The translations under genes were made by a program, and so were the position numbers. Shown here piece after piece: positions 30,841 through 62,863 of a DNA stretch of 64,000 nt. Origin of the DNA: Candidatus Magasanikiibacteriota bacterium (lineage in GTDB: Bacteria > Patescibacteriota > Patescibacteriia > Magasanikbacterales > GWA2-37-8); the NCBI GenBank assembly GCA_026396515.1, contig JAPLWQ010000002.1, forward strand, positions 125,575-189,574. The letters run 5' to 3'. The notes under the pieces are model-generated. The model was given only the letters and a program-made list of their open reading frames with translations. It had not been told where the DNA came from and did no database searches. The first letter of the stretch is position 1, and each line of letters opens with the position of its first letter.

Positions 30841-31279
30841 TCAGCCCGCCTTGGCCGCCGGCGCCTTCTTGGCGCTGCGGGACTTGGGGGCCGCCTTGGC
30901 CGCCGGCGCCGGGAGCTGAGCCACGGGGGCCTGCTCCGACACCGGGAGGTCGAGACCGCCGAAGATGTCGGCGAACGTCCCGAGGGCGGCCGACACGCGC
31001 TTCTCGCGCTTGGCCTCCCACTCCTCGATCGCGGCCGCGCTCTCGGAGAACCGGTAGAACATCCGCTCGAGGGGCTTGCCGGTGGTCTTGGCCACCAGCT
31101 TGGCGCGCTCGAGGATGCTCTCCTTGCACTCCCCGCAAGCCACGAACTCCGCCAGGTCCGCCACCTTCGCGGGGCGTCCGAGCTTGCGGTCGATCTTGCG
31201 CAGCGGCGGCACGAACGCGTGTGCCTCGTCCATCTCAGCGCCGCAACCGTCCACGATACACACCAATTTCTTGGACATG
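30841..31279 (-). CDS. Zinc-ribbon protein with Ala/Lys/Pro-rich basic C-terminal tail (histone-H1-like tail), GC island 2
   Basis: Strong SD AAGGAGG 5 nt upstream of ATG at 31279 (MSKKLVCIVDGCGAEMDE...FVACGECKES). C-terminus APAAKAAPKSRSAKKAPAAKAG. The ORF-track N-terminal extension to 31338 is probably not translated. Confidence 0.5.
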
Positions 31280-31698
31280 CTATCCTCCTTGTGCCCGCGT
31301 GAATCGCGAGCGGTTGTTATGAGAGCTTCAACGCTCAATAAAAGGTTGGTGTTAATTTGTAATTCTTTAGACAGATCAATCAGATACTATCTCTACACTG
31401 CAACCCTTTATTTAGCGCTAAAACTCGATGTAAGGAACAAAAAACCTCTGTTTGAGAGAGGCTAAAATCGTTCGCTTTACCTTATTTCCCTCTCTCAGGA
31501 AATTAGGCATATTTTCAGCATAACGGATTAGTATAGCATATTTTTACCCTTTTGTCAAGACCCTGCCTAACAAAACGCTTTTTTACCTAAAATAAGCCAA
31601 AAGACGACACGACTTGCAAAAACTACGGTTTTATTGTATAATAAAGGCCGATTTTACAATCAATCAAGATTTAGGTATTTGAAATTAGATATATCCAT

Positions 31699-41109: not shown

Positions 41110-41427
41110 TTACAATCGGCGCGCCAGGAACTGGTTTTTTGTCACGCTATTTATTATCGTTACTTTTGTTTGTGATACTTTCGGCTGCTCAACCTCTGTC
41201 GTATTTGTTTTCTCACTCGTTGTGACATTTGTAGCGTTAGAAGGTGACGCTACATTTATATCAGGGTTATTTACCCCTATTACATTACCCGACGCATCTC
41301 TTTGCACCATTACCAAATCTTCCGCTGACTGATTGTTTTCACAACCGGCCAAAAATACCGAACCGGAAACCACAAAAATTAAAATTAAATATTTCATAAA
41401 TATATTATTTAGGTACATGTTGCCCAA
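41110..41427 (-). CDS. Small lipoprotein (lipobox LAGC)
   Basis: MKYLILIFVVSGSVFLAGC... Thr/Asn-rich mature part. Confidence 0.5.
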   Translation of the reverse strand: MGNMYLNNIFMKYLILIFVVSGSVFLAGCENNQSAEDLVMVQRDASGNVIGVNNPDINVASPSNATNVTTSEKTNTTEVEQPKVSQTKVTIINSVTKNQFLARRL

Positions 41428-41951
41428 TAAAACGGACTCTTGATAACACCATTATCAAATATCCAGTTGCTATATGGGTCATTGTATTCACTGCACTGTG
41501 CCACGATATTAACTGTCGTCGGGCATTTATAAGAATCAACGTAGCCTTCATTTACATTCATTTTACAGTTCGCCAATTCTCTTGGTTCATTTCTTGACGC
41601 ACCGGATACTTGAACTGAAACTTTTGACATATCAGGCATAACAACCATACACTGACCTAGGCAATCTTCTTTTGTACGGCATGTTTTACCGGCATCCGAC
41701 AATTTATGTAGGCAGGTATTGCCACACGATGTTCGTTGCATTTTTCCTCCGGATATGGCACAACGTGCATCAATAGTTTTTCCAACAATAAGCACGCCCA
41801 AAGCGATAGGCGCCTGCATCATAAATTTTACAGGGCCCATTTGCCCTCTCACATTCTTATCTACTAACGGATAAACAACCAACATGCTGCCAACATCAAT
41901 TATTACCAAGACCGCCAATATAATTAACGTGATTTTAAAACCTTTACTCAT
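41409..41951 (-). CDS. Membrane-anchored Cys-rich protein, paralogue 3 of a tandem triplet
   Basis: 180 aa. N-terminal MSKGFKITLIILAVLVII TM. Conserved Cys pattern shared with the two upstream paralogues (C..SGGK....CG..C.HKL.DAGK.C....DC.G.C.....DMSKV...........EP.EL.NCKM......V.SY.CP..V.I.A.CS.Y...). Confidence 0.6.
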   Translation of the reverse strand: MSKGFKITLIILAVLVIIDVGSMLVVYPLVDKNVRGQMGPVKFMMQAPIALGVLIVGKTIDARCAISGGKMQRTSCGNTCLHKLSDAGKTCRTKEDCLGQCMVVMPDMSKVSVQVSGASRNEPRELANCKMNVNEGYVDSYKCPTTVNIVAQCSEYNDPYSNWIFDNGVIKSPFYWATCT

Positions 41952-41964
41952 ATAAAAATAATCA

Positions 41965-42429
41965 CTAAATTGCCCACGTATATGGGCTAATAATTAAACC
42001 ATTATCATATGTCCAGGGCGAAACTTGCTCAAAATATTTACTGCATTCTGCAACAATTTTTACGCTTGGCGGGCATTGATATGAATTAATTAAACCGCCA
42101 GATGACCCCATTTTACAATTTACCAACTCTTTAGGCTCATATCTTTTTTTGTCGCTTGTTAGACTTGTAACCTTGGACATATCCGGCTCAATAACCTGAC
42201 AAAATCCCTTACAGTCTTTATTGTTTTGGCACGGTTTACCCGCATCGCCTAATTTATGAAGGCACGTCTTCACACAAGCAATTCCACATTGCTCAACATA
42301 TTTTCCGCCAGTCACCCAGCATGTTGCGCCGCGCAACGGCTTCAAATTCCAGGGTTTATAAAACCACAAACCTGCGCCGACAGCTAAAATAATGATAATT
42401 AATAGCGACACTTTAAAACCTTTGCTCAT
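41965..42429 (-). CDS. Membrane-anchored Cys-rich protein, paralogue 2
   Basis: 154 aa. MSKGFKVSLLIIIILAVGAG... The same 10-Cys framework. Confidence 0.6.
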   Translation of the reverse strand: MSKGFKVSLLIIIILAVGAGLWFYKPWNLKPLRGATCWVTGGKYVEQCGIACVKTCLHKLGDAGKPCQNNKDCKGFCQVIEPDMSKVTSLTSDKKRYEPKELVNCKMGSSGGLINSYQCPPSVKIVAECSKYFEQVSPWTYDNGLIISPYTWAI

Positions 42430-42452
42430 AAAATATCAAAAAAATTAATAAT

Positions 42453-43022
42453 TTACATTCCCATATACTCCCGGTTTAAATTTACCGTTCCGTTTTCATA
42501 ACTCCAATATAATTCATTTCCGCTATAATCGTATTTTTGACAAGTTGATTGAATTTGTACCGTCGAAGGGCACACATATGACCTTAGAACAGGGTTAATG
42601 CCCAATTCATCTTTGGTTAAGGTAATTTTTCGACAATTAATTAAAACAGTCGGCTCAAGATCGGAAATTTCTCCGGTTATTTTATCTCGCGCAGGAACTG
42701 GCAAATTCGCAATGCATTTGCCATCACACTCTTTTGAACTTGCGCATGCTTTCCCGGCGTTCTTGTTTGCCCGATCACATATGCTACCACAGCTTATTCC
42801 GCAATTACTGACGACCTTACCCCCGGTCACCACGCAGAATACATTCGATATTTTCTTAATTCCTTCGATAACGAGTATAATTGGAGCCTTAATTATAGCT
42901 TCTCCCATATTCTTAACACTGCCCTCGTTCTTAATTTCCTTTACAGCTAATGCTAAACCGATAACAACTAATAAGGACACAGCCACCAAAATAATTAATA
43001 TCTTTTTAAAAGACGAACTCAT
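42453..43022 (-). CDS. Membrane-anchored Cys-rich protein, paralogue 1
   Basis: 189 aa. MSSSFKKILIILVAVSLLVV... More divergent but with the same Cys spacing (CVVTGGK...CG.SCGSIC...AGKAC...ECDGKC...NCRK...YVCPSTVQI.STC). Confidence 0.55.
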   Translation of the reverse strand: MSSSFKKILIILVAVSLLVVIGLALAVKEIKNEGSVKNMGEAIIKAPIILVIEGIKKISNVFCVVTGGKVVSNCGISCGSICDRANKNAGKACASSKECDGKCIANLPVPARDKITGEISDLEPTVLINCRKITLTKDELGINPVLRSYVCPSTVQIQSTCQKYDYSGNELYWSYENGTVNLNREYMGM

Positions 43023-46111: not shown

Positions 46112-46226
46112 ACAAGGTTCAGGCGCCGGCCTACTTTTGCGGGTTACGCTATCATCGGCGCTGGCAGGCTTAACTGCCGAGTTCGGGATGGGATCGGGTG
46201 TGACTCTGCCGCTCAAGGCACCTGAA
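46112..46226 (-). rRNA. 5S ribosomal RNA
   Basis: Minus strand contains CCCAUCCCGAACUCGGCAGUUAAGCCUGCCAGCGCCGAUGAUAGCG (5S loop B/C core). Flanked by an extended inverted repeat (processing stem). Confidence 0.8.
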
Positions 46227-46294
46227 CTTTGTACTCAGTTTATATCCCGATTTATTCGTCGGGATTTTAATAGCTCAATTTCAAAAACAGAATC

Positions 46295-49295
<3,001 letters not shown>

Positions 49296-49751
49296 ACAAC
49301 GAAAACACCAAACAGTGTTTTGTTGCGTTCTACCCAGCAGTTCATCCCACCGTAGCGGGATAAAATCTGCTTTTTTTGTTGAGCTATCTAGATTGTCAAC
49401 GTGCCATCCGTTTCCTACCTCATTGCTCATGCCAATAATTTAGCCTGAGTGTGAGATAAAAAAATGAGCCGCGACAAGCGACTCAATTTTTGTGAGTTTG
49501 AACCGCTTGGATACTATGAGTAAGATTTGAGTTGTTTGATAATGTTTAACATTACCTGTCTTTTACAATTGAGTAAAAGTCTTACCCAGAGGTCCAGGCG
49601 GATACGATATGTATCCATGTGATTGGACGTGGTCCCCGAAGGGGTTTTAATCGTAGGCACATATTAACAGAGTATAAAAAAGTTGTCAAGAGCCATAAAT
49701 GGGACAGAATGTGGATAAATATATTGGCTTTTTTTAACTAGAAATGGCCCT

Positions 49752-49792
49752 AAAAAAGAAAAACCGGCTGGCGCTAGAAGCGGACAGCCGGT
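49752..49792 (-). terminator. Rho-independent terminator at the edge of GC island 3
   Basis: Minus strand AACCGGCUGUCCGCUUCUAGCGCCAGCCGGUU hairpin plus UUUUUCUUUUUU. Confidence 0.65.
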
Positions 49793-49816
49793 TGAATGAA
49801 GGAACGAAAAATCTCT

Positions 49817-50311
49817 CTACTGAATAAGCACATTCATGTCGTCGCAAAAGTTGAAGGAACCGAAGGTGTCACCCAGCAAATCGGAGCAGGTGTACTGGAG
49901 CAGGTCGCCCTCGCCCAAGTAGACGCTGATCACGAGCTGGTCGCCCTTGCCGAAGGTTGCGATCTCATTGTCGTCGCCGTCCGGCCAGAGACAGTTCTCA
50001 ACCACTAACCCTCCGGTGGTGTCGTTGTCCACGGAAACGATCACCGTGGCATCGTTACCGTTTTCGAACTGGACTTCGATACCCTCACCGTGTTCGAAAA
50101 CAAACCGGACAAGCACCGAGCAGACCTCCACCTCGGCGTACTCGCGGTCAGAACCGCTCGTGTCTGCATCGGCTTCGTCGCCCTGCGTGGTGTTAATCAC
50201 CGTTGTCTCCGGCTCCGGGACGATATCCTGCACGCCGCATGACACGGCACAGACGATCCCGAGGAACATCCAGGCGCGAAAAACGTACTGCATGAGGTCG
50301 TAAATTCGCAC
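49817..50311 (-). CDS. Putative lipoprotein, acidic (GC island 3)
   Basis: GAGGAG SD 7 nt upstream of a GTG start (MRIYDLMQYVFRAWMFLGIVCAVSCG). Signal peptide with lipobox-like AVSC. Asp/Glu-rich mature domain. The ORF-track N-terminal extension to 50371 is unlikely. Confidence 0.5.
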   Translation of the reverse strand: MRIYDLMQYVFRAWMFLGIVCAVSCGVQDIVPEPETTVINTTQGDEADADTSGSDREYAEVEVCSVLVRFVFEHGEGIEVQFENGNDATVIVSVDNDTTGGLVVENCLWPDGDDNEIATFGKGDQLVISVYLGEGDLLQYTCSDLLGDTFGSFNFCDDMNVLIQ

Positions 50312-50464
50312 GATTTTTCTCCTCTCTTTTTTACGGCCATTTGGCCGTTTCGTTGATAGTAAAAGGAACAAAGAATAGTATCACGAATTATCGGAATTGT
50401 CAACCACTATGAAAAGAACAAGCCCGGCATGAGTAGCCGGGCTTGGGAAATGAACGAGAATGAA

Positions 50465-51034
50465 TCAAACGTGCGGGAAGAAAGACTGTCCGATGCAGTC
50501 CGGTTCGCCGTTGTTTTTCAAACAGCAGGCGGGTGTGAACGGATAATGTGTCGGACAGGCCGGCGGCGGGTAGTTTGAGCCGCAAGCGGGTAGGGTATCA
50601 GCCCAATTCCACTCCACCGGAGACCAGTAATCACAGCCGCCGAGATCAAACGAATCGCAACTCAACTCTTCGGACGGACCGTCATCCCAGCAGTACCAGA
50701 ACTGATCGGATCCGGGATAGGTCGGCGGATAGCAGGTATGCGTCTCATAGCCGCAAACCTCTTCCTCGCCGCACTCATCGGCCGTCTCGCAGACTGTAGG
50801 CTCGGTATCGGTGTCTGTGTCGGTGTCGGAACCAGCATCGGCGTCCGTATCCGAATCAGAGTCCGTATCCGTGTCGGAGTCAGTGTCGATATCGGAGTCC
50901 GTATCGGAATCAATGTCGGAATCGGTGTCCGAGTCCGAATCGCCGTCACTGCTTGCGTCTGCTACTGTGTACTCTTGTTGGACCCCACAACCAAGAACCA
51001 GAACTGAACATACGAGGACAAATGTGTTACGCAT
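50465..51034 (-). CDS. Lipoprotein with (Ser-Asp/Thr-Asp)n acidic repeat and Cys-rich C-terminal domain (GC island 3)
   Basis: 189 aa. MRNTFVLVCSVLVLGCG lipobox, then DSDSDTDSDIDSDTDSDIDTDSDTDTDSDSDTDADAGSDTDTDTDTE. C-terminal 16-Cys domain (CETADECGEEEVCGYETHTCYPP...CCLKNNGEPDC). Own hairpin terminator at ~50420-50445. Confidence 0.65.
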   Translation of the reverse strand: MRNTFVLVCSVLVLGCGVQQEYTVADASSDGDSDSDTDSDIDSDTDSDIDTDSDTDTDSDSDTDADAGSDTDTDTDTEPTVCETADECGEEEVCGYETHTCYPPTYPGSDQFWYCWDDGPSEELSCDSFDLGGCDYWSPVEWNWADTLPACGSNYPPPACPTHYPFTPACCLKNNGEPDCIGQSFFPHV

Positions 51035-51173
51035 CGCTTTCCCCTTTGTAAAAGGCCGTTGTTTTAGCCATTTGTTTCTTCTTCTGCGAACTTGAAACTA
51101 TACTACAAATTAACGTAAACGTCAATCACTCGTGACTAATTCAACAAAAAATCGCCACAGGTAGCCTAGCGTG

Positions 51174-51256
51174 TGCCGGAGAGAGGACTCGAACCTCCAA
51201 TCCCTTTCGGGAACATGCTCCTAAGGCATGCGTGTCTACCAATTTCACCACCCCGG
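51174..51256 (-). tRNA. tRNA-Leu (anticodon TAG), long variable arm
   Basis: Minus strand GCCGGGGUGGUGAAAUUGGUAGACACGCAUGCCUUAGGAGCAUG...GGUUCGAGUCC...CUCCGGCA. Anticodon loop CUUAGGA. Confidence 0.75.
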
Positions 51257-51494
51257 CGTACAGCACAATATAGCATAAAAATCAGCATATTACAAGATTG
51301 AAACACAAATGAACGGGACCGAGCGAATTGAATTTTTGTTGAGGACAATCGCGGAATCCCGATGACAAAATCGGGATGAGCGTTAGGGCACCGAGTCCGC
51401 AGACGAGGCGACCCGTGTCCGAAACAAATATTCAATAAGCAAATCACATAAACAATACAGCGAGCCAAGTGGCCCGCTGTACTAAATGATATTT

Positions 51495-53723
51495 TTATCT
51501 TCCGCCTCTGAAACCTCCACCGCTCTTACGGTCGCGGCTGCCGCCTCCTCGTCCGCCGCCAAATCCGCCTCTGCGTTCCATCGGCGGCCGTTCCACATAT
51601 CCTTCCGGTTTTGGTAAAAGCGCTTTCATACTCAAATTTACCCGGCCCATACTGTCAATTTCTTTGACCACCACATTCACTTTATCGCCCAATTTCATCA
51701 CGTCACTCGGTTTACTGGTATAGGCCCAAGCAATATCGGTCACGTGCACCAGGCCGTCCTGACCCGGCAGTACATTCACGAACGCGCCAAAATCTTCCAG
51801 CCGGACAACCGTGCCTTCATATGTCTCACCGGCGGTGATTTCATGCGTGATGCTTTTCACCCATTCAATCGCTTTTTCCAAACCAACCGCATCGTTTGAT
51901 GTGATGTTAACCCGGCCATCCTGCTCAATATCAATCGACACACCGGTTTCATCAATAATCTTGTTAATCATTTTACCGCCCGGTCCCACCACATCACGAA
52001 TTTTTTCCGGATTAATCTGAATAGTGACGATGCGCGGCGCGTAGGGCGACATTTCCTTTCTCGGTTCAGCAATCACTTTTGCCATTGATTCAAGAATCTT
52101 GAAACGCGCCTCACGTGAACATTTAAAAGTCTCTTCAATAATTTCCCAACTCAAACCATCTGTCTTGGTGTCCATTTGCATAACGGTAATGCCGGAATCG
52201 GTGCCGGTAATCTTAAAATCCATACCGCCCGGTCCGTCTTCAACATCCTGCAAATCGGTAATCACTTTCCAATTGCCTTTCTTGTCGCTGGCCAACCCGA
52301 TGGCAATACCGGCGACCGCCTTTTTAATCGGTACACCGGCGTCCATTAAAGCCAAAGATGAGGCGCAAGTAGAAGCCATTGAGCTCGATCCATTGGAACC
52401 AAGCACCTCGGACACAACGCGCATAGCATAGGGAAAATCTTTTTCATCGGGCAAAACCGGCTGAAGCGCCCGTTCTGCCAGTGCACCATGCCCGATCGCC
52501 CGGTTGCCCGGACCACGCAGCGGCCCGGTCTCGCCATACGTCGCAGGAGTATCATTATAATGATGCATATAACGCTTTGTACCTTCTTCTTCCATCGTAT
52601 CCAGAGTTTGTACGTCGCCCGGTGCGCCTAAAGTTACAACCGACAAAACCTGCGTATCGCCGCGCTGGAACAAACCTGTGCCATGTGTTCTCGGCAAAAG
52701 CCCAACTTCAGAATACAAATCGCGAACGTCGCTTAAACCACGACCGTCCAAACGCTCGCTCTTTTCAATTATTCTTTTGGTGACAATTTCTTCAACATAG
52801 ATTTTTACGCGCCCCAAAACTATAGTCATTATTTTTTCATCGATCACCTCTGCTGTCATTTTTTCTTTTAGAGCATCGGAAAACCGATCAACCATGGCCA
52901 CGCGTTCAGCGCGATTCTTTTTTGGCGCGTCAAAAATCCAATCATCTTCATGTGAAGCGATAAATTCGCGTGCCTGCTTCTCCATATCCCGAAGTTTTAT
53001 TTCCGCCTCGGTCAAATTATTATGCAGGTCAATTTTTTCCTGACCGATTTCTTTTTGAATTTTCTTGATAAATTCAAGTACCGGCTCGAGCGACTTCGCG
53101 CCAAATTGCATGGCGGCAAGCACTTCCGCTTCCGGTTCCTCACTGGCGGCCATTTCCACCATTATCACTTTATCCGGCGTACCGGCTACTACCATGTCCA
53201 ACGTGCCCTCGTCCCGTTGTTTAAAAGTCGGATTGAGCACTAATTGACCGCCAACTTTGCCGACGCGCGCGCCGCCGATTGGTCCTTTCCATGGAATCGG
53301 AGAAACCGCTAAGGCCAAAGACGCGGCCACAAACGCCGGGACTTGTGAATCATTTTCTCCATCCCATGATAGCGCGGTAAGAATCACTTGCGTGTCGTTG
53401 CGCATAGAATCGTCAAAGAGAGGACGAATCGCCCGGTCAACCATGCGGCCGGATAAAATCGCTTCCTCACTCGGGCGCCCCTCGCGCTTGATGAACCGGC
53501 TGCCTTTTATTCTTCCGGCGGCATACAATTTTTCCTCAAAATTCACCATCAGAGGAAAAAAATCAATACCATCACGGGTATTTTTACTCATGGTGGCGGT
53601 TGCTAAAATTACGGTATCGCCATAGCGCACCATACATGAGGCCTGGGTTTGGAGAGCCAGCTTTCCGGTTTCAACAGAAAGCTTGCGGCCGCCCCATTCC
53701 ATGGACCAGTTTTTAACATTCAT
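51495..53723 (-). CDS. pnp: Polynucleotide phosphorylase (RNase PH x2, KH, S1, Gly/Arg-rich tail)
   Basis: 742 aa. Canonical PNPase domain order. C-terminal RGG tail. Confidence 0.9.
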   Translation of the reverse strand: MNVKNWSMEWGGRKLSVETGKLALQTQASCMVRYGDTVILATATMSKNTRDGIDFFPLMVNFEEKLYAAGRIKGSRFIKREGRPSEEAILSGRMVDRAIRPLFDDSMRNDTQVILTALSWDGENDSQVPAFVAASLALAVSPIPWKGPIGGARVGKVGGQLVLNPTFKQRDEGTLDMVVAGTPDKVIMVEMAASEEPEAEVLAAMQFGAKSLEPVLEFIKKIQKEIGQEKIDLHNNLTEAEIKLRDMEKQAREFIASHEDDWIFDAPKKNRAERVAMVDRFSDALKEKMTAEVIDEKIMTIVLGRVKIYVEEIVTKRIIEKSERLDGRGLSDVRDLYSEVGLLPRTHGTGLFQRGDTQVLSVVTLGAPGDVQTLDTMEEEGTKRYMHHYNDTPATYGETGPLRGPGNRAIGHGALAERALQPVLPDEKDFPYAMRVVSEVLGSNGSSSMASTCASSLALMDAGVPIKKAVAGIAIGLASDKKGNWKVITDLQDVEDGPGGMDFKITGTDSGITVMQMDTKTDGLSWEIIEETFKCSREARFKILESMAKVIAEPRKEMSPYAPRIVTIQINPEKIRDVVGPGGKMINKIIDETGVSIDIEQDGRVNITSNDAVGLEKAIEWVKSITHEITAGETYEGTVVRLEDFGAFVNVLPGQDGLVHVTDIAWAYTSKPSDVMKLGDKVNVVVKEIDSMGRVNLSMKALLPKPEGYVERPPMERRGGFGGGRGGGSRDRKSGGGFRGGR

Positions 53724-54845: not shown

Positions 54846-55313
54846 TTATGGACAAGGCCCGGAAATAACTTCACCTCCGCCATCTGAACAATATGTTTTT
54901 TCTTCTTCGCTCAAAATGGCTCCACATGAACCGTCCGAAAAAAGACAAGACGATTTGCCTGCTACTCTACTTAGAATGAACGTTGTTATAGCATAAGATG
55001 CGGCGATAATAACTAACCCTATAATCGCCGCTTCAAGAATACCTTTCGCCTCAGCCACCTTATCTTCTTTGCCACGAGCCGTTAGCCATGTAAATCCGCC
55101 ATAAAGGGTGAGGGCGAAGAAAAGAATCGCCACAATTCCAAGAACAGTGGAAACAATGCTTTGAATCCGACCCGTAATTGAACTTGATGCACCGGTAGTC
55201 TCATAACCGGCTTTTGTCGCCGTATCCTTCAAACCAAACCCGGCCGAAAGCGCTTGACCACCGAAAAACAGCAAACCAACAACCGCAAAAATTAATATTA
55301 TTTTTTTGTGCAT
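54846..55313 (-). CDS. TrbC/VirB2-like (T4SS pilin-like) two-helix membrane protein, outlier copy with Cys-rich C-terminal tail
   Basis: 155 aa. Signal peptide. Conserved core ILFFALTLYGGFTWLTARGKEDKVAEAKGILEAAIIGLVIIAASYAITTFIL shared with the 57457-62863 array. Tail is KSSCLFSDGSCGAILSEEEKTYCSDGGGEVISGPCP. Confidence 0.5.
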   Translation of the reverse strand: MHKKIILIFAVVGLLFFGGQALSAGFGLKDTATKAGYETTGASSSITGRIQSIVSTVLGIVAILFFALTLYGGFTWLTARGKEDKVAEAKGILEAAIIGLVIIAASYAITTFILSRVAGKSSCLFSDGSCGAILSEEEKTYCSDGGGEVISGPCP

Positions 55314-56381: not shown

Positions 56382-57467
56382 ATGACCACTCCAAAAAAAA
56401 TTTTATTTGTTTCCTGTTCCGCCGGCGCCGGCCACAAACGCGCCGCCGAGGCCTTACGTTTAACATGCGCAAAAATCTATCCTGACATTGAAGCCAGGCA
56501 TATTGATTTAATCGACTATTCAAACGGATTAGTTAAAAAGACCGCTTCAAGCTATCATTTTTTAGCAAAACATCTCCCCGATGTTTATGGCTTACTTTAT
56601 GATGGATCCGATTCAACCATTGCCGCAAAATTTTTAAATTATTTTTCTTCAATTTTTCAAATTAATACAAAAAAGTTGCGCCGGTTTGTAAAACAATATA
56701 ATCCGGACCGAATAATTTGCACGCATTTTTTGGCTTCGCCCTTTCTAAAATCATTTGCCGAAACAACTCCGCTCGATATGCTCATCACTGATTATGAGTT
56801 GAACAAGGTAGTACTGGATCCAAAAATACGATATTTCTTTGCTCCTGAAAAAGGCATAGCTGACGAGATATCAGCACTCGGACGTCAGGCATATGCCACG
56901 GGCATACCAATACATCCGCAATTTTTTGAACAAAAAAATTTCAATCAGACATTGAATGATTTCGGACTAAATATTGATATTCCAACGGTACTGGTTATGT
57001 CCGGCGGAACCGGTCTGGCAGATACCACCTCTTTGGTCAAGAAAGTCCTAAAAAACCAACAGAAGATGAACTTACTGGTTATTTCCGGAAAAAATAATCG
57101 CCAATTATACGGCAAGCTTTCCCGTCTTACGGCGCCTTCAAACATTAATTATAAAATTGTTGACTTCACCGAACGCATTGATGAGTTAATGAAAACGGCA
57201 GACTTAATAATAACAAAACCGGGCGGTTTAACTATTACCGAATGTATGCATTTAGCCAAGCCTCTTCTTCTCGTAAGCCCCATCCCCGGACAGGAAGAGG
57301 CAAACATTCGTTTCCTGGAAAAAAATAATTATGGCCGGCTTGTGGCCGACCATAATGAAATTACGAATTTGATTGATCTTGTCCTTAACGGTACATTGAA
57401 ATTTACCAGCCCTGTTCTTCCCGTTAATGCTGCTGAAACGATATTACAGCTTTCGTTTACGGATTAA
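56382..57467 (+). CDS. GT28-family glycosyltransferase, processive diacylglycerol glycosyltransferase (UgtP/YpfP, MGDG-synthase)-like
   Basis: 361 aa. N-terminal KILFVSCSAGAGHKRAAEAL (MGDG synthase / UgtP N-terminal signature) and C-terminal GT28 domain (TKPGGLTITECMHLAKPLLLVSPIPGQEEANIRFL). Confidence 0.6.
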   Translation: MTTPKKILFVSCSAGAGHKRAAEALRLTCAKIYPDIEARHIDLIDYSNGLVKKTASSYHFLAKHLPDVYGLLYDGSDSTIAAKFLNYFSSIFQINTKKLRRFVKQYNPDRIICTHFLASPFLKSFAETTPLDMLITDYELNKVVLDPKIRYFFAPEKGIADEISALGRQAYATGIPIHPQFFEQKNFNQTLNDFGLNIDIPTVLVMSGGTGLADTTSLVKKVLKNQQKMNLLVISGKNNRQLYGKLSRLTAPSNINYKIVDFTERIDELMKTADLIITKPGGLTITECMHLAKPLLLVSPIPGQEEANIRFLEKNNYGRLVADHNEITNLIDLVLNGTLKFTSPVLPVNAAETILQLSFTD

Positions 57468-57894
57468 ACGGCTGATTCTCACTGCTTGGCGGATTTACTT
57501 TTAAGGCATCACGATTGCCGCCAATGGCAAGATAAGCGACAAAAATTGTAATTGAATAAGCGCAAATAACAATAACCAAACCAATAATTGAGGCTTTTAA
57601 GGTATTCTTCGCCTTTGTTATTTGTTCTTCGTTCCCGCCGGACATCATCCATAAAGCGCCGGCATAAAGTGTAAGGACCAGAAAAATAATACCAATTAGA
57701 CTTAATGCCGCGCGTATAATCGTTGCCGCTGTTACACGCGGGTCTTGAGGTTCGCTGTAACCGGCCCCCTCTTCCGCGGCCGCTGACAGTTGCCCTTCCA
57801 TTTCTGTAATGCTGGCCATCGCCCGGTCGGCAAATAGAAGACCTCCGAATAAAAGCAATCCGCAAATCAGGATTGTTTGTATTTTTTTATTCAT
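57457..57894 (-). CDS. TrbC/VirB2-like pilin-like protein, array member
   Basis: 145 aa. Signal peptide plus core IIFLVLTLYAGALWMMSGGNEEQITKAKNTLKASIIGLVIVICAYSITIFVA. Confidence 0.5.
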   Translation of the reverse strand: MNKKIQTILICGLLLFGGLLFADRAMASITEMEGQLSAAAEEGAGYSEPQDPRVTAATIIRAALSLIGIIFLVLTLYAGALWMMSGGNEEQITKAKNTLKASIIGLVIVICAYSITIFVAYLAIGGNRDALKVNPPSSENQPFNP

Positions 57895-57905
57895 ATATTT
57901 CTTTA

Positions 57906-58529
57906 TTAGTAATCAATTCCGCCCGCACAATTAAAATACGGAGTGCATGACTCACCAGCAAACCATTGCGCATCCGCCCATTTTTGTCCACAAGTTGCTG
58001 CAGAGGTAGTCTGCATACACTTTTTTTCCGCCTCCCAATAACAGCAACCCATACTCGTTTCCGGCCCCCACTGGCTTGAATCAGTACTCGGAGCCGATGC
58101 TCCAATCACAAAATTCATAACCAACGCCGTAATCCCATAAGCCGATGCCACGATAGCCAAACCGATGACCGATGACTTTATTATACCCTTGGCTTTTGTA
58201 ATTTTTTCTTCAGCGCCGGAAGCAGTCATCCAAAGAAGACCGGCATAAATAGTTAAGACCAAAAATATCACGCCAATTAATGACAATACTCCGCGGATAA
58301 TTCCACCAATGGTACGCGACAAGGCATATTGATCGCCGCTGGTATCATAACCCGATTGATTCGCGATACCCTGCGCCATACCGCCCTGCTGGAAACCAAT
58401 ATCAGGCGCAGCAAAAACTTGCGTTGATAAAAGAAAAAAACCGCCAAGTACTGCGACCGTAATGATGAACAATTTTTTCATAATGATACAATATTTTTTG
58501 AAATACGCTATTATTATGGCATGCAACAT
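57906..58529 (-). CDS. TrbC/VirB2-like pilin-like protein with Cys/Trp-rich C-terminal tail
   Basis: 207 aa. Core VIFLVLTIYAGLLWMTASGAEEKITKAKGIIKSSVIGLAIVASAYGITALV. Tail has 7 Cys (GCCYWEAEKKCMQTTSAATCGQKWADAQWFAGESCTPYFNCAGG). Confidence 0.5.
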   Translation of the reverse strand: MLHAIIIAYFKKYCIIMKKLFIITVAVLGGFFLLSTQVFAAPDIGFQQGGMAQGIANQSGYDTSGDQYALSRTIGGIIRGVLSLIGVIFLVLTIYAGLLWMTASGAEEKITKAKGIIKSSVIGLAIVASAYGITALVMNFVIGASAPSTDSSQWGPETSMGCCYWEAEKKCMQTTSAATCGQKWADAQWFAGESCTPYFNCAGGIDY

Positions 58530-59095
58530 TTATGTATTTCTCCGGGTGTAACATCGGCTGCGGTGCAATCCAAACTGGCATCCAATGTCTCTTCTTCTGC
58601 GCAAGGATTACTCGGATTTGCGCTACTATAGGCACAAGAGCCGCCTTTCGACATACAATCATTGCCACCACCCGAACCCCCGCCGGTTCCGAGACGCAAT
58701 AACACAAATGTAGTGATGGCGTATGACGATAATAATATCATCAATCCAATAACTGAGGTGGCAATTATCTTTTTCGCCCGGGTCACTTCTTCATCGCGCC
58801 CGGCAGCTTTTATCCAAACAAATCCGCCGTAAATAGTGAGAATTAAAAAAACCGTGCCCAAAATATAAAAACCGCCTTTTAATATATCTTCGGTAAAGGA
58901 AGAAACATCGGACGACAGCCCAACGCTCGTTTTCATACTATTAAGCTTTGCGCCGGCCGCTCCTATCCCTCGTGGCGCGTCATCGCCGGCAAAAACACAG
59001 ACTGGAATAATTAACCAGGCAATTATAGCAACAACAATTGTTTTGCGTAAATTCATATATTTCTTATGCACCACAACAGACTCGCTGGGTCTCAC
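58514..59095 (-). CDS. TrbC/VirB2-like pilin-like protein with Cys-rich C-terminal tail
   Basis: 193 aa. Core TVFLILTIYGGFVWIKAAGRDEEVTRAKKIIATSVIGLMILLSSYAITTFVL. Tail GGGSGGGNDCMSKGGSCAY...CCMP. Confidence 0.5.
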   Translation of the reverse strand: MRPSESVVVHKKYMNLRKTIVVAIIAWLIIPVCVFAGDDAPRGIGAAGAKLNSMKTSVGLSSDVSSFTEDILKGGFYILGTVFLILTIYGGFVWIKAAGRDEEVTRAKKIIATSVIGLMILLSSYAITTFVLLRLGTGGGSGGGNDCMSKGGSCAYSSANPSNPCAEEETLDASLDCTAADVTPGEIHKCCMP

Positions 59096-59552
59096 CGCTT
59101 GGTGGACAGGTGCCTATAACTTGGCCCGACGGACAGCTACTCATCGGCGTACAAACACCACCCAGCTTACTGCTACAATCTTCAGTTCCTTCAACATCAC
59201 CACTCTGGCCAAGCCGGGAAGCGACAAAAGCAGTAATTGTATAAGCAAACAAAATAATCGCCAAACCGATAACCGCTCCAATAATAATCTTTTGCGCTTT
59301 GCCAATCTTTTCTTCGTTACCGGACGCCGTCATCCACATGACACCGCCAACAACCGTTAACACTAAAAAAATCGTGCCCGTCACAGCCAGTATTGCCGTA
59401 ATAATATTCGCTGTGCTCGTGTTAAGATCTGATTCCAAACCGACTCCACCAACCGATTGATTCAACAAACCCGAGCCTAACGCATCCGCAAAAACAAACT
59501 GCGGCACGAAAATAATTAGCAGGGCAATGGTGATGAGCAGTATTTTTTTCAT
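59064..59552 (-). CDS. TrbC/VirB2-like pilin-like protein with Cys-rich C-terminal tail
   Basis: 162 aa. Core TIFLVLTVVGGVMWMTASGNEEKIGKAQKIIIGAVIGLAIILFAYTITAFVA. Tail ...CSSKLGGVCTPMSSCPSGQVIGTCPP...VCCGA. Confidence 0.5.
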   Translation of the reverse strand: MKKILLITIALLIIFVPQFVFADALGSGLLNQSVGGVGLESDLNTSTANIITAILAVTGTIFLVLTVVGGVMWMTASGNEEKIGKAQKIIIGAVIGLAIILFAYTITAFVASRLGQSGDVEGTEDCSSKLGGVCTPMSSCPSGQVIGTCPPSGETQRVCCGA

Positions 59553-59558
59553 AAAATA

Positions 59559-60551
59559 TTATTTGAGGTATTTATCACTAACATTAGCTTCAAATGTCCC
59601 AAGACAACACTTAACATCATTGTTCTTCTCCCAAACTCCATAGCAATAACCAGGTTTCAAATTTTTTGACGCGTTGTCGCAGGTAAATAATGTCGTATCA
59701 ATACAAGTGCCTCCAAGTTTTGCACAATTCTTACAACAAATCTGGCCGGTTGGGCAGCCTTGTGCGTCCTCCGATGGCTTACCGTTGTGAATCTCTGCAC
59801 AAGCAAATTTTTCTGCACAGAAAAATCCCGCTTGTTTTTCACAGGCGTTCTGCTCCTGAGCGCCGCCCTCTTCCTCTTTAGGCGCCATTGCCCCGGAATT
59901 CATCCAAGCTACATAGGCTTCGGGAGGCACACAACATTCAAGTCCTTCAGTACTGCATAAACCTGTAACAATTTTTTTATCTTCACATCCTTTTTGGGCG
60001 GTGTCGATGCATGCTCCCCCTCCATCTTTAAAGGCATAATCACACTCACTTACACATTTCTTACTTTTACATACTTGGTTCACGCCCTTAGCCGCGCATT
60101 CCTCGGCATATACTCCATCCGGCGTATTTGCGCACACCTGGCCCGCTTCTTGTATAAAGGTATCAAAAATAAAAATTGTAATGGTATAGGCGGATAGAAC
60201 AATCACAAGACCTATCACTGCTGACTGTAGGCGGCTCTTGGCCGCCCCCACTTTTTCCTGAGATCCGGCCGCCGTCATCCATGTAAAGCCGGCGAATAGA
60301 ATTAATATAAAAAAATAGACACCGACCAGCGATAAAGCAATAGACACTAAACTGCCTAATACTTTAGGAATACTTCCGCCTGTCGCGCCTGCAGAAATTT
60401 GGTTGGATGCGAGGCCTGATTGCGAGCCGGCAGTTGAGAGACCATACGGGTCATCTGCTGCTTTAACAATATTTATTGCCAACCATAACGAAGCCAACAT
60501 TATTGACGCGGCCACCACTGCCACAGTTAATTTTGAGAAATTCTTAATCAT
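59559..60551 (-). CDS. TrbC/VirB2-like pilin-like protein fused to ~200-aa C-terminal ectodomain with ~30 Cys
   Basis: 330 aa. Core GVYFFILILFAGFTWMTAAGSQEKVGAAKSRLQSAVIGLVIVLSAYTITIFIF followed by a long Cys-rich region (CANTPDGVYAEECAAKGVNQVCKSKKCVSECDY...CCKNCAKLGGTCIDTTLFTCDN...). Confidence 0.5.
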   Translation of the reverse strand: MIKNFSKLTVAVVAASIMLASLWLAINIVKAADDPYGLSTAGSQSGLASNQISAGATGGSIPKVLGSLVSIALSLVGVYFFILILFAGFTWMTAAGSQEKVGAAKSRLQSAVIGLVIVLSAYTITIFIFDTFIQEAGQVCANTPDGVYAEECAAKGVNQVCKSKKCVSECDYAFKDGGGACIDTAQKGCEDKKIVTGLCSTEGLECCVPPEAYVAWMNSGAMAPKEEEGGAQEQNACEKQAGFFCAEKFACAEIHNGKPSEDAQGCPTGQICCKNCAKLGGTCIDTTLFTCDNASKNLKPGYCYGVWEKNNDVKCCLGTFEANVSDKYLK

Positions 60552-60553
60552 AA

Positions 60554-60964
60554 TTACGGAGACGGAGTTGTCGTGGCTGTTTCTGCCGGAGCCGCCGTTA
60601 GTCGTTCAAATACAAATGTGGAGATGGCATACGAAGCAGCAACAATTAATAAACCAATAATTGCCGTTTCCAGCATTGATTTCGCCTTATTCACTTTTTC
60701 AACTGTCCCGCCAGCCGTCATCCAGGTGAGGCCGGCGTACAAAACCAGTAAAAAGAAAATTGTTCCGACAAACATTAATAATGTGGTCACTATTGTGCTG
60801 GCTAAAGTTTCCGGTGTCTGTTTGCTTATGCCTAATGTTAATAATTTAGTCTTCTCCGCAGTCAGATTCAGACCGTATTTGTCTTTTCCCTGCGCGCCGA
60901 CAAAAACAGGCAACATAATTGCCCCCAAAATCACAAGCGCTAGCATAAGCCTTTTAATGGCCAT
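60554..60964 (-). CDS. TrbC/VirB2-like pilin-like protein, array member
   Basis: 136 aa. Core TIFFLLVLYAGLTWMTAGGTVEKVNKAKSMLETAIIGLLIVAASYAISTFVF. Confidence 0.5.
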   Translation of the reverse strand: MAIKRLMLALVILGAIMLPVFVGAQGKDKYGLNLTAEKTKLLTLGISKQTPETLASTIVTTLLMFVGTIFFLLVLYAGLTWMTAGGTVEKVNKAKSMLETAIIGLLIVAASYAISTFVFERLTAAPAETATTTPSP

Positions 60965-61054
60965 ATTATTCTGGTTTGGATTCTTTTGAAAAACAAGCCA
61001 AACCGGAATTTCTGTCAGGGGGTTGCGCGCGCGAACCCCCTGACAGGAAGGATA

Positions 61055-61486
61055 TTAACCGCCCGTACCGGAACCTGTACCGGTAGTAGCACTGACCAAT
61101 TGACTGATAATAAAGCTGGCTAACGCGTATGCTGACAAAATAATAGCCAAACCGATTACACCAGAGAAGATCCATTTCTTGGCTTCTCCTACCTGCTCTT
61201 CATTACCTCCGGCAGTCATCCATTTGAAACCACCGATAAGGATGATAACCACAGCGACGATACCGAGTAAGCCCATAGCTACCCGAATGATACGAGCAAT
61301 AGTTGCGCGGACATCTTCACTTCCAAGACCGGTATCTGACGCGTAACCAATGCCGAGATCGTCTGTACCAAGTACGCCTTCACTCGCGTAAACCGGTGCG
61401 ACGTTGAAACTCATAAAACCGCCGAGTAACAAGGCCAACGAAGCTACGAATACTGCTAATTTTTTCATAATTTCACCCCCTTTCAA
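61055..61486 (-). CDS. TrbC/VirB2-like pilin-like protein, array member
   Basis: 143 aa. Core IVAVVIILIGGFKWMTAGGNEEQVGEAKKWIFSGVIGLAIILSAYALASFII. Confidence 0.5.
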   Translation of the reverse strand: MKGGEIMKKLAVFVASLALLLGGFMSFNVAPVYASEGVLGTDDLGIGYASDTGLGSEDVRATIARIIRVAMGLLGIVAVVIILIGGFKWMTAGGNEEQVGEAKKWIFSGVIGLAIILSAYALASFIISQLVSATTGTGSGTGG

Positions 61487-61559
61487 GGAATTGGCACCAA
61501 TGTGCCGGATAATTATTACTTATAAATATTTTATCTTATTATGAATTTTTGTGCAATCA

Positions 61560-61961
61560 TCATGATTGAGCACCTTGCAAAAATCTAAACACTGTATTGA
61601 CTAATAAATAACTGGCTAAAACTACAATTAGTCCTATTATTGACCACATCATTGTTTGAGTACCCCTTTTTACTTTTTCTTCATTTCCAGCAGAAGTGAG
61701 CCATTGAAAACCGCCCCAAACCATCATAACAAGCGACAAACCGCCAACCAGCCCCAAAAACGACCTGATGACGGTGCCTATGATAACAGCCGGAGTAATA
61801 TCAGCATCTTTAAGAGCCTTACCTTTGCTGTCAGTCAATTGAATCGGATTTTCAAGGTCAACCGTTTCTTGCGGCGTGGAAGTTGCCAAGGCAGCCGGTA
61901 CGATAACGGCGAAGCAGCTAAATAGCAGAAAAAAAACAAATATTTGCTTTAAATATCTCAT
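61560..61961 (-). CDS. TrbC/VirB2-like pilin-like protein, array member
   Basis: 133 aa. Core GLSLVMMVWGGFQWLTSAGNEEKVKRGTQTMMWSIIGLIVVLASYLLVNTVF. Confidence 0.5.
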   Translation of the reverse strand: MRYLKQIFVFFLLFSCFAVIVPAALATSTPQETVDLENPIQLTDSKGKALKDADITPAVIIGTVIRSFLGLVGGLSLVMMVWGGFQWLTSAGNEEKVKRGTQTMMWSIIGLIVVLASYLLVNTVFRFLQGAQS

Positions 61962-61966
61962 ATATT

Positions 61967-62863
61967 CTAACCAATCTTTGTAAGAATAGTGTTAACGATC
62001 ATATAACTGCCGGTCATCGCCAGAATGCCAAAAGTAGTCCAAATAAGAATCTTTTTTGCTTTTGTAATTTTTTCCGCAGTACCGCCTGCTGACATCCATG
62101 TAAATCCGGCATAAATATATAAAATGAGAGCAATTGACCCCATAAACGCGAGCAATATATTTACACCGCTCGCGAGCAAACTATATGGCGAACTGATCTT
62201 CATCGGATTCAATTTCTTCGCGCCAGCTACCAGCGAAGTGATACCTTGTGGCTGTTGCGGTGCTGGCTTTGCCGTATCTCCGGTTTTTGCTTCATACATA
62301 TCTATCACGTCCACCGGCGCTAAGATGTTTACGTCAACAGTGCACGGTGTTATGCAATAATCACTTGAATTCCTCAGTAAACATTTACCACTAACAATGC
62401 AACCGTTACTTTCAGTTTGTGCGTACACCGTATCGGCAAAATTCAAACTCTTGCCCGACTTTACTCCAATGGTATTACTCAAGAACGTAATTAGAGCATA
62501 GGCGCTAAAAGCAATTACCAGGCCAACTACTGCGGCGGTTATCGCACCGGTGCCCTTTTTAACCTTTTCCTGGTTGCCTTGAGACATTATTAAAATAAAA
62601 CCGCCATAAACAAACATCAAAAGCGCTAACGCGCCGATAAAACCAAAAATATAGAGGCCGACATTAATAGCAAACGTGATAAAAATGTCAATTTTGTCGC
62701 AGCTCTTATCAATACTGTTCCCCAACAAACAAGACGGAATAATTTTACTTGCACCCTGGGAAGCCGATGACCCCGATGGAGTGCTGGTGGCTAAACAAGG
62801 AGCGGCAAATAAAAAACTCGCTCCGATTGCCATCAAAATAAAAATTTTTGAAAACATTTTCAT
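61967..62863 (-). CDS. Tandem double-domain TrbC/VirB2-like protein (two pilin-like cores fused in one ORF)
   Basis: 298 aa. First core IGALALLMFVYGGFILIMSQGNQEKVKKGTGAITAAVVGLVIAFSAYALITFL, Cys-containing linker, second core GSIALILYIYAGFTWMSAGGTAEKITKAKKILIWTTFGILAMTGSYMIVNTIL. Confidence 0.5.
   Translation of the reverse strand: MKMFSKIFILMAIGASFLFAAPCLATSTPSGSSASQGASKIIPSCLLGNSIDKSCDKIDIFITFAINVGLYIFGFIGALALLMFVYGGFILIMSQGNQEKVKKGTGAITAAVVGLVIAFSAYALITFLSNTIGVKSGKSLNFADTVYAQTESNGCIVSGKCLLRNSSDYCITPCTVDVNILAPVDVIDMYEAKTGDTAKPAPQQPQGITSLVAGAKKLNPMKISSPYSLLASGVNILLAFMGSIALILYIYAGFTWMSAGGTAEKITKAKKILIWTTFGILAMTGSYMIVNTILTKIG

Follow-up and report, generated by a model that had tools for sequence, protein, structure and literature searches.

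The stretch of DNA analysed here (the window, 64 kb of a Candidatus Magasanikbacteria contig from the Patescibacteria/CPR) contains two neighbouring genes, p2 and p1, which probably form a pair of separately transcribed, lineage-restricted genes for cell-surface lipoproteins, held in a conserved slot between tRNA-Leu(tag) and a 23S-5S rRNA unit and acting through an anchored stalk-and-head mechanism. The best reading of the two sequences is that lipid-anchored polyanionic stalks display disulfide-locked heads on the cell surface. CPR bacteria are believed to spend their lives attached to other cells, and few of their surface proteins have been defined; the locus provides two small, position-conserved, rapidly diversifying putative lipoproteins, each with an orphan head rich in disulfides. 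Both make reasonable candidates for host or environment contact, and are easy to express and test.

The ORF list confirms both genes on the minus strand, where a preliminary description of this DNA had placed them, and their position between the 23S rRNA (46322..49296, minus strand) and tRNA-Leu is borne out as well. The features of the slot are as follows.

51173..51257, minus strand: tRNA-Leu(tag), found by ARAGORN (Rfam 54.4 bits); upstream boundary of the slot, with its 3' end towards p2.
51097..51125, minus strand: predicted sigma-70-like promoter site of p2, TTGACG-17-TATAGT, from a consensus scan (10/12 matches).
50465..51034, minus strand: p2 gene (NTW66_01340), an ORF of 189 aa, identical to P0001.
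50987..51034, minus strand: p2 signal peptide and lipobox, residues 1-16 (Cys16), predicted by a PS51257-type rule.
50801..50947, minus strand: p2 acidic dipeptide tract, residues about 30-78, with Asp at every second position and Ser, Thr, Ile, Ala or Gly between.
50468..50800, minus strand: p2 Cys-rich head, residues 79-189, rich in Pro, Trp and Tyr, with 12 invariant Cys (alignments A2/A3).
50419..50445, minus strand: p2 intrinsic terminator, CAAGCCCGGC-loop-GCCGGGCTTG and a T-run, with a 10-bp stem (dG -21.3, z -5.9).
50375..50403, minus strand: predicted promoter-like site of p1, TTGACA-17-TACTAT with a TG extension, from the consensus scan.
50333..50348, minus strand: small hairpin in the p1 5' UTR, ACGGCC-AAAU-GGCCGU, directly upstream of the ribosome-binding site GAGAGGAG.
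49817..50311, minus strand: p1 gene, an ORF of 164 aa with a GTG start after GAGAGGAG.
49750..49793, minus strand: p1 intrinsic terminator, AACCGGCUG...CAGCCGGUU and a U-run, with the hairpin at 49762-49793 (fold dG -22.3, z -3.6).
49661..49689, minus strand: promoter-like site of the 23S-5S unit, TTGACA-17-TAATAT, from the consensus scan; downstream boundary of the slot.

Each gene thus comes with a promoter-like site and a terminator, an arrangement conserved over five loci. The proposal that each gene has its own GC-stem terminator agrees with the dG and z scores of both hairpins, of which the one behind p1 was missed in the consensus scan because its loop is longer than 8 nt. The stem of the p2 terminator is unchanged across five related loci, the -35 and extended -10 elements of p1 are kept in L008, L009 and L014, and the hairpin in the p1 5' UTR occupies the same place in L008, L014, L001 and L006 and is less clear in L009. 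The 2326 nt from tRNA-Leu to 23S are 100% identical in L019, an independent Logan assembly, and the junctions are therefore no assembly artefact. On either side of the pair the ORFs belong to conserved housekeeping genes (PNPase, NYN, S15 and HD), and the 23S-5S rRNA unit at this slot is unlinked.

The homologues found all lie in Patescibacteria-type contexts, with two contigs bearing other bin labels. A search of 1.84 billion representatives yielded just 3 clusters for p2, and p1 has 25 homologous clusters, none of all these from GC-rich taxa; no myxobacterial, viral or plasmid-borne homologue is among them, and searches of viral contigs, plasmids and PHROGs came back empty. In about ten related genomes (loci L001, L002/L013, L005/L006, L007/L008, L009, L014, L016, L017/L018 and L015) the gene order is PNPase, tRNA-Leu, p2 where present, p1, in some cases a small gene and Smr, and then 23S. 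The tRNA-Leu ahead of p2/p1 is the same one in L001, L002, L006, L013, L016 and L017. The p1 gene occurs in all related loci and p2 in seven of about ten; it is absent from L001, L002/L013 and L005/L006, and a search for p2 remnants in L001, L002 and L006 found none. The p1 gene occurs in two types, A and B, and the type B p1 of relatives has long D-x linkers. The small gene and Smr of the relatives are both absent from the window. The slot looks like an evolutionary hot spot: p2 and the small downstream gene are gained or lost from locus to locus, stalks differ in length, and the two p1 types do not follow the pattern of the neighbouring genes. The occupation of the same slot in related Patescibacteria argues that the pair is native to this lineage and not a foreign island.

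The base composition of the pair is unusual at third codon positions. GC3 is 0.770 for p1 and 0.616 for p2, whereas the 55 other ORFs of the window average 0.430 (sd 0.047, maximum 0.56), so that the GC-rich codons described earlier stand 4-7 sd above those of the other ORFs (z = 7.3 for p1 and 4.0 for p2). In bulk GC the locus stands out only modestly: it has 0.56-0.57, the window 0.45 and the neighbouring PNPase gene 0.50, and intergenic GC is host-like at 0.40-0.41. Amino-acid composition was rejected as the cause of the excess in p1 (GC2 0.345, GC3 0.77) and is only partly a cause in p2 (GC2 0.51, GC3 0.62); other Cys-rich secreted proteins encoded in the window have normal GC3. Two stronger GC islands are found in the same window. 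In every genome examined, p2, p1 and the small gene have a GC3 of 0.56-0.80 versus 0.34-0.60 in flanking genes, and in L014, L015, L016 and L017 the change is abrupt at tRNA-Leu and at Smr. The p2 homologue P0015 shows the same excess (0.62 versus 0.33-0.41) at a different locus. Since orthologues share this excess although their synonymous sites are near or at saturation, high GC3 appears to be a maintained property of the module and no mark of recent foreign origin. A local GC3 spike beside a tRNA gene in these genomes, being inherited with the gene across lineages, is by itself no evidence of recent horizontal transfer. Candidates for its upkeep include recombination-linked gene conversion, selection on mRNA, or something else.

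Both genes are under purifying selection (dN/dS 0.06-0.13 for p2 and 0.07-0.25 for p1, with dS at least 0.84), and both evolve faster than PNPase, which is 78-87% identical among five genomes in which p1 is 34-68% identical. The types of p1 are distributed incongruently with p2, PNPase and 23S. The p2 protein of L014 is 75-83% identical to those of the window, L008 and L009, while its p1 is only 31-33% identical to theirs; that p1 is 90% identical to the p1 of L017, whose p2 shares 43% with that of L014. Such patterns, together with the sharp GC3 edges and the conserved terminator/promoter block between p2 and p1, which could serve as a crossover point, make it conceivable, if somewhat doubtful, that the slot is a dedicated surface-antigen cassette locus driven by recombination. 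Alleles of p1 (A and B), p2 and the small gene would then be swapped between lineages of related Patescibacteria by homologous recombination, the conserved tRNA-Leu and rRNA/Smr flanks serving as anchors, with GC-biased gene conversion holding GC3 at 0.6-0.8 versus 0.35-0.55 in other genes; recombining bacterial genes do tend towards higher GC3 (PMC4450053). If true, this would represent a localised footprint of GC-biased gene conversion and an antigenic-cassette system in CPR bacteria. However, the comparison relies on similarity patterns over only five to seven loci, the nucleotide identity of the L014 and L017 p1 genes (80%) is little above the roughly 75% of housekeeping genes, and GC3 is high in P0015 although that gene lies elsewhere. 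The L014-L017 identity is also compatible with slow evolution of type B combined with paralogue sorting, and the two types of p1 could have arisen by differential loss of ancient paralogues instead of exchange.

The stalk-and-head reading is drawn most directly from p2. Its acidic tract, earlier described as a perfect repeat of 45 residues, is real and about 47-50 residues long, but it is not perfect: at one point (DADAGSD) a Gly stands in place of Asp, an interruption kept among homologues. The underlying DNA repeat is imperfect too, being only 59-86% self-identical. Mature p2 has a net charge of about -44, a pI of about 4 and a single Lys or Arg residue, and about 48% of the tract is Asp or Glu. 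The C-terminal domain had been credited with 16 Cys; it contains 12, all invariant, out of 14 in the whole protein, the other two lying in the signal peptide. The head has no match in Pfam, NCBIfam or PDB, and Pfam was negative for the Cys domain in six members. NCBIfam SD-repeat models match only residues 27-77 of p2, at 30-31 bits versus cut-offs of 999-2500, a match to low complexity only. The protein ends in ...IGQSFFPHV, without LPXTG.

The p1 protein has a similar layout, with a signal peptide and lipobox (AVSC25), a short acidic linker (residues 26-59) and a 4-Cys domain (residues 60-164) that is predicted to be all-beta and in which all four Cys are invariant (alignments A1/A6). It carries a net charge of -27 with a pI of about 4, and its N-terminus, [MV][RK][IL]YD, is kept among homologues. 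A kinship between p1 and the p2 head was considered and rejected, profile-profile comparison showing the two to be unrelated. Scans against Pfam, NCBIfam and PHROGs, run with p1, p2 and the small gene that follows p1 in relatives, gave only low-complexity noise, and sequence and profile searches of PDB with p1 and p2 gave no match; both appear to be orphan families, with no Pfam match. AlphaFold2 models were unusable (pLDDT 50.6 for p1 with an alignment of 12 sequences, 41.1 for the p2 head with four).

In the proposed mechanism, each pre-protein would be exported by Sec, its lipobox Cys would be modified with diacylglyceryl and the signal peptide then cleaved by signal peptidase II, so that the mature protein stays anchored on the outside of the cytoplasmic membrane. 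The anchor would be followed by a disordered polyanionic (D-x)n stalk, about 48 aa in p2 and about 34 aa in p1 (long in the type B p1 of relatives), which would probably carry divalent cations and may hold a compact head off the membrane, through the wall or S-layer. The heads, presumably locked by disulfides among 12 Cys in p2 and four in p1, would be the functional surfaces, most likely serving to touch another cell (host or partner) or the environment.

A rather unlikely alternative is that the D-S/T tract is itself functional instead of a passive spacer, acting as a high-capacity, low-affinity polyanion for Ca2+/Mg2+ or mineral surfaces and possibly O-glycosylated or phosphorylated. Its acidity and charge would suit such a role, the tract is present in all p2 homologues and has a counterpart in the long D-x linkers of type B p1, and the conservation of the DAG[ST]D interruption reveals constraint on position; by analogy, the SD repeats of staphylococci are glycosylated (PMC3794999). 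However, homologues differ freely in the sequence and length of the tract (34 to at least 68 residues), which is what a spacer would show, strict conservation is found in the Cys-rich heads, and the locus has no linked glycosyltransferase or kinase. The same variation bears on the idea that the tract is a hotspot for length change: homologues do differ, but the independent assembly of the same organism is identical. Contigs L008, L009 and L014 start inside the tract, and L018 starts in its last TE repeats.

That p1 and p2 are anchored lipoproteins, as the stalk-and-head model requires, is indicated by pattern rules. A lipoprotein signal was defined by a K/R n-region, a hydrophobic h-region and [LVI][ASTVI][GAS]-C with the Cys at position 15-35. 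Both proteins carry one, so that both products look like lipoproteins, in agreement with the lipobox signal peptides noted earlier, and each fails another rule at one position. The p2 lipobox, VLGC at Cys16, passes the PROSITE PS51257-type rule and fails G+LPP, while p1 passes G+LPPv2 at Cys25, where a Cys at -4 makes it fail PS51257. The aligned lipobox Cys passes a rule in 10 of 12 other p1-family sequences tested, an equivalent of Cys16 occurs in P0002 and P0015, and a Cys likewise ends the signal peptide in the p2 proteins of L016 and L017. There is only a slim chance that the two are instead soluble secreted proteins cut by signal peptidase I, or exported factors associated with a type IV secretion system (T4SS), with no membrane anchor. 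The failed rules would fit this, as would the result of a search for lgt, lspA and dsb/disulfide oxidoreductase genes within the 64-kb window, which found none, and the position of P0015 three genes downstream of a VirB4/PrgI/TraC-like cluster. However, most homologues of p1 and p2, even highly divergent ones, keep a Cys at the end of the h-region with Ala, Gly or Ser before it; CPR genomes encode lgt in multiple copies (PMC4736985); and only one locus of more than ten shows a link to T4SS genes.

It had also been suggested that the pair came in as a foreign island, acquired from a myxobacteria-like donor of high GC and inserted site-specifically at the tRNA-Leu 3' end; this history is very improbable and is already largely refuted. 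Like tRNA-linked islands, the locus lies beside a tRNA 3' end, has atypical composition (as do the stronger GC islands of the window) and has one gene that is variably present, p2 being missing from the slot in L001, L002 and L006; in two relatives a second copy of 20 nt from the tRNA-Leu 3' end even follows shortly after the tRNA. That duplicate, however, brackets only an RNA-like element of ~125 nt and not the lipoprotein genes. Across the whole window the 23-nt 3' end of tRNA-Leu, with up to 3 mismatches, matches only itself, and its 14-nt core has matches at chance level, none near 49.7-50.5 kb, so that the direct repeat sought near 49.8 kb is not there. No integrase or mobility gene lies inside or beside the pair, where the only ORFs are p1 and p2 and the flanks are PNPase, NYN, S15 and 23S-5S-HD. 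Homologues in the same context recur in related genomes, p1 is present at this site in all of them, and promoters, terminators and intergenic DNA are host-like and conserved. The characterisation of such proteins as myxobacteria-like and not CPR does not hold for a Magasanikbacteria contig whose homologues are Patescibacterial in context, nor does recent import readily explain a GC excess that orthologues keep at dS of 0.84 or more, near or at saturation.

Among known systems, the putative p2 lipoprotein is reminiscent of the staphylococcal MSCRAMM proteins ClfA/ClfB and SdrC/D/E, in which a long (S/T-D)n tract also separates the cell anchor from a folded surface domain. That tract is thought to be an extended wall-spanning stalk, and its length varies among strains as that of p2 does among homologues. 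The p2 anchor, however, is an N-terminal lipobox instead of a C-terminal LPXTG sortase motif, the A-domain and B repeats are absent, the heads are unrelated orphan domains, and the locus has no linked SdgA/SdgB-like glycosyltransferase. The Vlp, Vsa and Vsp lipoproteins of Mycoplasma, likewise reduced-genome, host-dependent bacteria, also have a lipoprotein signal peptide followed by length-variable charged tandem repeats, and are fast-evolving surface proteins at a defined locus. The resemblance to p1 and p2 extends to the signal peptide, the charged region of variable length, the rapid evolution and the fixed locus; unlike those proteins, p1 and p2 form no multigene family, their DNA repeat is imperfect, they end in strongly conserved disulfide-rich domains, and no phase-variable homopolymer or invertible promoter is seen at the locus.

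Within the CPR, Cys-rich extracellular proteins thought to mediate attachment have been described in Peribacteria (PMC4736985). Like p1 and p2 these are secreted, Cys-rich and strain-variable, with a proposed attachment role, but they average about 1650 aa (versus 164 and 189 aa) and weakly resemble Myxococcus Cys-rich repeats, whereas p1 and p2 appear to be lipobox-anchored and match no repeat family. Searches with Myxococcus Cys-rich repeat and MXYO-CTERM models found nothing beyond a low-complexity hit on MXAN_5453_fam (11 bits at E 0.088; cut-off 500). Arrays of genes with SPII signal peptides lie beside T4SS genes in Saccharibacteria (PMC7427843), and these too are small CPR lipobox proteins, with P0015 providing a parallel for the T4SS neighbourhood; however, p1 and p2 have no sequence relationship to the array members, and in the window and most relatives they lie outside a T4SS cluster. 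T4SS_pilin genes are present in the window 3.8 kb from the locus.

The interval 49752-51262 carries two ORFs, both on the minus strand, which encode the lipobox-type proteins p1 and p2. The features of the locus, all on the minus strand, are as follows.

51495..53723, minus: PNPase gene, upstream of tRNA-Leu
51295-51267, minus: sigma-70-like site, tRNA-Leu
51173..51257, minus: tRNA-Leu(tag), one boundary of the p2-p1 slot
51125-51097, minus: sigma-70-like site, p2
50465..51034, minus: p2 ORF, 189 aa
50445-50419, minus: p2 GC-stem terminator (dG -21.3, z -5.9)
50403-50375, minus: sigma-70-like site, p1
49817..50311, minus: p1 ORF, 164 aa, with a GTG start 7 nt past GAGAGGAG
49793-49762, minus: p1 GC-stem terminator with a U-run (dG -22.3, z -3.6)
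49689-49661, minus: sigma-70-like site, 23S
46322..49296, minus: 23S rRNA gene, the other boundary of the slot, followed by 5S

The gene pair is real and lies where the preliminary description placed it. The junctions of the locus are real, since the window is matched with 100% identity by a separate Logan assembly (L019) over 2326 nt, from upstream of tRNA-Leu into the 23S gene. Five loci preserve the p2-p1 spacer: its terminator stem is invariant, and it also carries TTGACA, an extended -10, GAGGAG and a small hairpin in the 5' UTR. These regulatory signals are thus native. Purifying selection acts on both genes (dN/dS 0.06-0.25, with 0.08-0.09 for PNPase), which are therefore real and functional. 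In the minimum free energy fold of the p1 5' UTR (50312..50375, minus), the GAGAGGAG ribosome-binding site is base-paired to a pyrimidine run, UUCCUUUU (dG -15, z -2.6); this weak signal could reflect sequestration of the site. In the protein collection, the 164-aa p1 product with its GTG start comes only from Logan assemblies, and the MAG's NCBI record does not supply it; GenBank may call p1 with another start or not at all.

The pair had been read as a foreign island inserted at tRNA-Leu, but that reading fails, and the two genes probably encode lineage-specific surface lipoproteins of an ordinary kind. No second copy of the tRNA-Leu 3' end was found in the window, the ORFs beside the pair are conserved housekeeping genes rather than mobility genes, and related genomes share this context, an outcome that the preliminary description had itself named as counting against its reading. 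The recurring order is (T4SS pilin - S15 - NYN) - PNPase - tRNA-Leu(tag) - [p2] - p1 - [small gene - Smr] - 23S - 5S - HD, in which the small gene encodes 98-134 aa; neither it nor Smr was found in the window. Among the genomes compared, p1 is present in all and p2 in seven of about 10. In three sets of relatives' contigs (L001/L012, L002/L003/L013 and L005/L006) p1 directly follows tRNA-Leu without p2, while p2 precedes p1 in L004, L007/L008, L009, L014, L016 and L017/L018. In L015, p1 is followed by the small gene and Smr; the 273 nt of sequence to hand upstream of p1 contain no p2. L016 and L017 have extra genes between PNPase and tRNA-Leu, and one p2 homologue (P0015) is found at a different locus, where a ComF-like gene and a PrgI/TraC-like/VirB4 cluster directly precede it.

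In some relatives a GC-rich structured element of about 125 nt lies just 3' of tRNA-Leu (L006 185-312, L005 about 107-235, L004 1-131). An inverted T-arm copy forms its start, and its last 20 nt exactly duplicate the 3' end of tRNA-Leu from the same genome. Of its two internal hairpins, which covary between L004 and L006, one has a GGAA loop; a search of Rfam returned no family. The duplicated end encloses only this element, and not p1 or p2. No 16S gene lies upstream of the 23S-5S unit (46118..49296) within the window, where protein genes and tRNA-Leu (51173..51257) precede it, an arrangement that matches the unlinked rRNA genes reported for Patescibacteria (10.1101/705046). The L014 23S gene (2425-5544) exceeds the model by about 195 nt, and contains two tRNA-like matches at 3735-3891, one to tRNA-Ile(gat) with 69 bits and another with 58 bits.

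The suggestion that these proteins are myxobacteria-like and foreign to CPR also fails. The p2 protein is identical to MCX6781751.1 (NTW66_01340), from a Candidatus Magasanikbacteria MAG (328,883-nt contig), and the source organism falls in the Patescibacteria/Parcubacteria group. There are 12 close p1 homologues (55-82% identity) and a profile search gave 25 clusters, and no Pfam domain was present in any of them; all hits with a name or context are on Patescibacteria-type contigs. Two of these contigs are labelled 'uncultured Gammaproteobacteria' and 'Methanoregula sp.' (L013, CAYOXC010000004.1, and P0022 / L017), yet have the Patescibacteria synteny PNPase - tRNA-Leu - p1 - 23S, and are probably mis-binned. 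With the p2 C-terminal domain (head) as query, an exhaustive phmmer search against 1.84 billion representatives gave three clusters only, and additional p2 copies were seen on contigs surrounding p1 homologues. Searches of viral contigs, PHROGs and plasmids gave no match. The window also encodes other Cys-rich secreted proteins, with ordinary GC3.

41409..43022, minus: three tandem 10-Cys paralogues (180, 154 and 189 aa) with an N-terminal membrane anchor, MSKGFK..., and GC3 0.36-0.38
59559..60551, minus: T4SS-pilin-like protein with 22 Cys, within a small-membrane-protein array

That array occupies 54846..55313 and 57457..62863 (minus), and several of its members match PF18895 (T4SS_pilin). 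A small lipobox protein (FLAGC29) is encoded at 41110..41427, next to the 10-Cys paralogues, and a weak VirB8-like match is present at 12733..13881.

The N-terminus of p2 is MRNTFVLVCSVLVLG-C16. In its acidic tract or stalk (residues 30-79, 47-50 residues), every second position is Asp, with a single Gly-for-Asp swap at DADAGSD. The repeat is imperfect at the DNA level (59-86% matches), and is thus not a classical slippage-prone microsatellite. The 111-residue head is rich in P, W and Y and has 12 Cys, not the 16 first counted; the signal peptide adds two, which makes 14 in the whole protein. In p1, a signal peptide extending to AVS-C25 is followed by a 34-residue acidic linker and a domain of about 105 residues with four Cys, predicted to be all-beta in a low-confidence model. 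The PROSITE-type lipoprotein rule passes p2 and fails p1 at one position, the G+LPPv2 rule does the reverse, and the lipobox Cys is kept in most homologues tested. Mature p2 and p1 have net charges of about -44 and -27, respectively, and a pI of about 4.

No homology was detected between the two heads, but these unrelated families have a common architecture: a lipobox, a polyanionic (D-x)n linker, which would be disordered, and a head with an invariant, even number of Cys. Because this architecture occurs in both, p1 and p2 are probably membrane-tethered, stalk-displayed surface domains stabilised by disulfides. Cation binding by the stalk is a plausible prediction. Mycoplasma variable lipoproteins have repeat regions, which the stalks recall, but membership in that family fails. 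The stalks also resemble the SD-repeat region of staphylococcal Clf/Sdr adhesins (PMC3794999); p2, however, lacks LPXTG and an A domain and its NCBIfam scores are far below cut-off, which excludes it from that family. Other CPR are reported to have several lgt genes and Cys-rich extracellular proteins for which a role in attachment has been proposed (PMC4736985).

Two features are mildly interesting: a GC3 spike that is inherited, and mosaic alleles in a tRNA-rRNA slot that is itself conserved. GC3 is 0.770 in p1 (z 7.3) and 0.616 in p2 (z 4.0), against a mean of 0.430 (sd 0.047, maximum 0.56) for 55 other ORFs in the window; intergenic pieces within and beside the supposed island are host-like (GC 0.40-0.44). 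An amino-acid effect was ruled out as the source of the p1 excess (GC2 0.345). All genomes examined show the same pattern: GC3 is 0.56-0.80 for p2, p1 and the small gene against 0.34-0.60 for flanking genes, and it changes sharply at the tRNA and at Smr. The excess does not look like a sign of recent import, since orthologues share it at pS 0.5-0.77 (dS 0.84 to saturation), at which a foreign composition would have decayed; it thus appears to be maintained.

What is true in the island view is that the slot is dynamic. Stalk length among homologues ranges from 34 to at least 68 residues; three contigs (L008, L009 and L014) start inside the tract, and L018 starts in its last TE repeats. In five genomes, PNPase is 78-87% identical versus 34-68% for p1, which occurs as type A (153-167 aa, the window's type) or type B (168-182 aa; its D-x linker is long, and it has an added GS[IV]GTGEGGDEDV loop). 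The p2 of L014 is 75-83% identical to those of the window, L008 and L009, and only 43% to that of L017, while its p1 is type B and 90% identical to that of L017. L016 and L017 have the most similar PNPase (87%), yet different p1 types. By these sequence comparisons, p1 types appear to be distributed incongruently with p2 and PNPase, which, for the few loci compared, points either to recombination that swaps cassettes or to ancient paralogues lost differently among lineages. GC-biased gene conversion linked to recombination (PMC4450053), we infer, would connect the mosaicism with the raised GC3.

Other GC3-rich genes occur in the window. A second GC island at 30841..31338 (minus; NTW66_01210) is a 165-aa ORF, annotated as 145 aa, with GC3 0.89 and no matching Pfam or NCBIfam family. 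The strongest composition outlier in the window is NTW66_01130 (14021..16537, minus), whose 838-aa product contains domains of the Major Vault Protein (MVP_shoulder, E 6e-29; Vault_3, E 3e-10); its GC is 0.63 and its GC3 0.89, against a GC of 0.45 for this CPR genome. Another GC3-rich block in the clade is L001 1257-2620, where phosphoribosyltransferase and OMP-decarboxylase genes have GC3 of 0.77-0.87 versus 0.39-0.60 for the other L001 genes.
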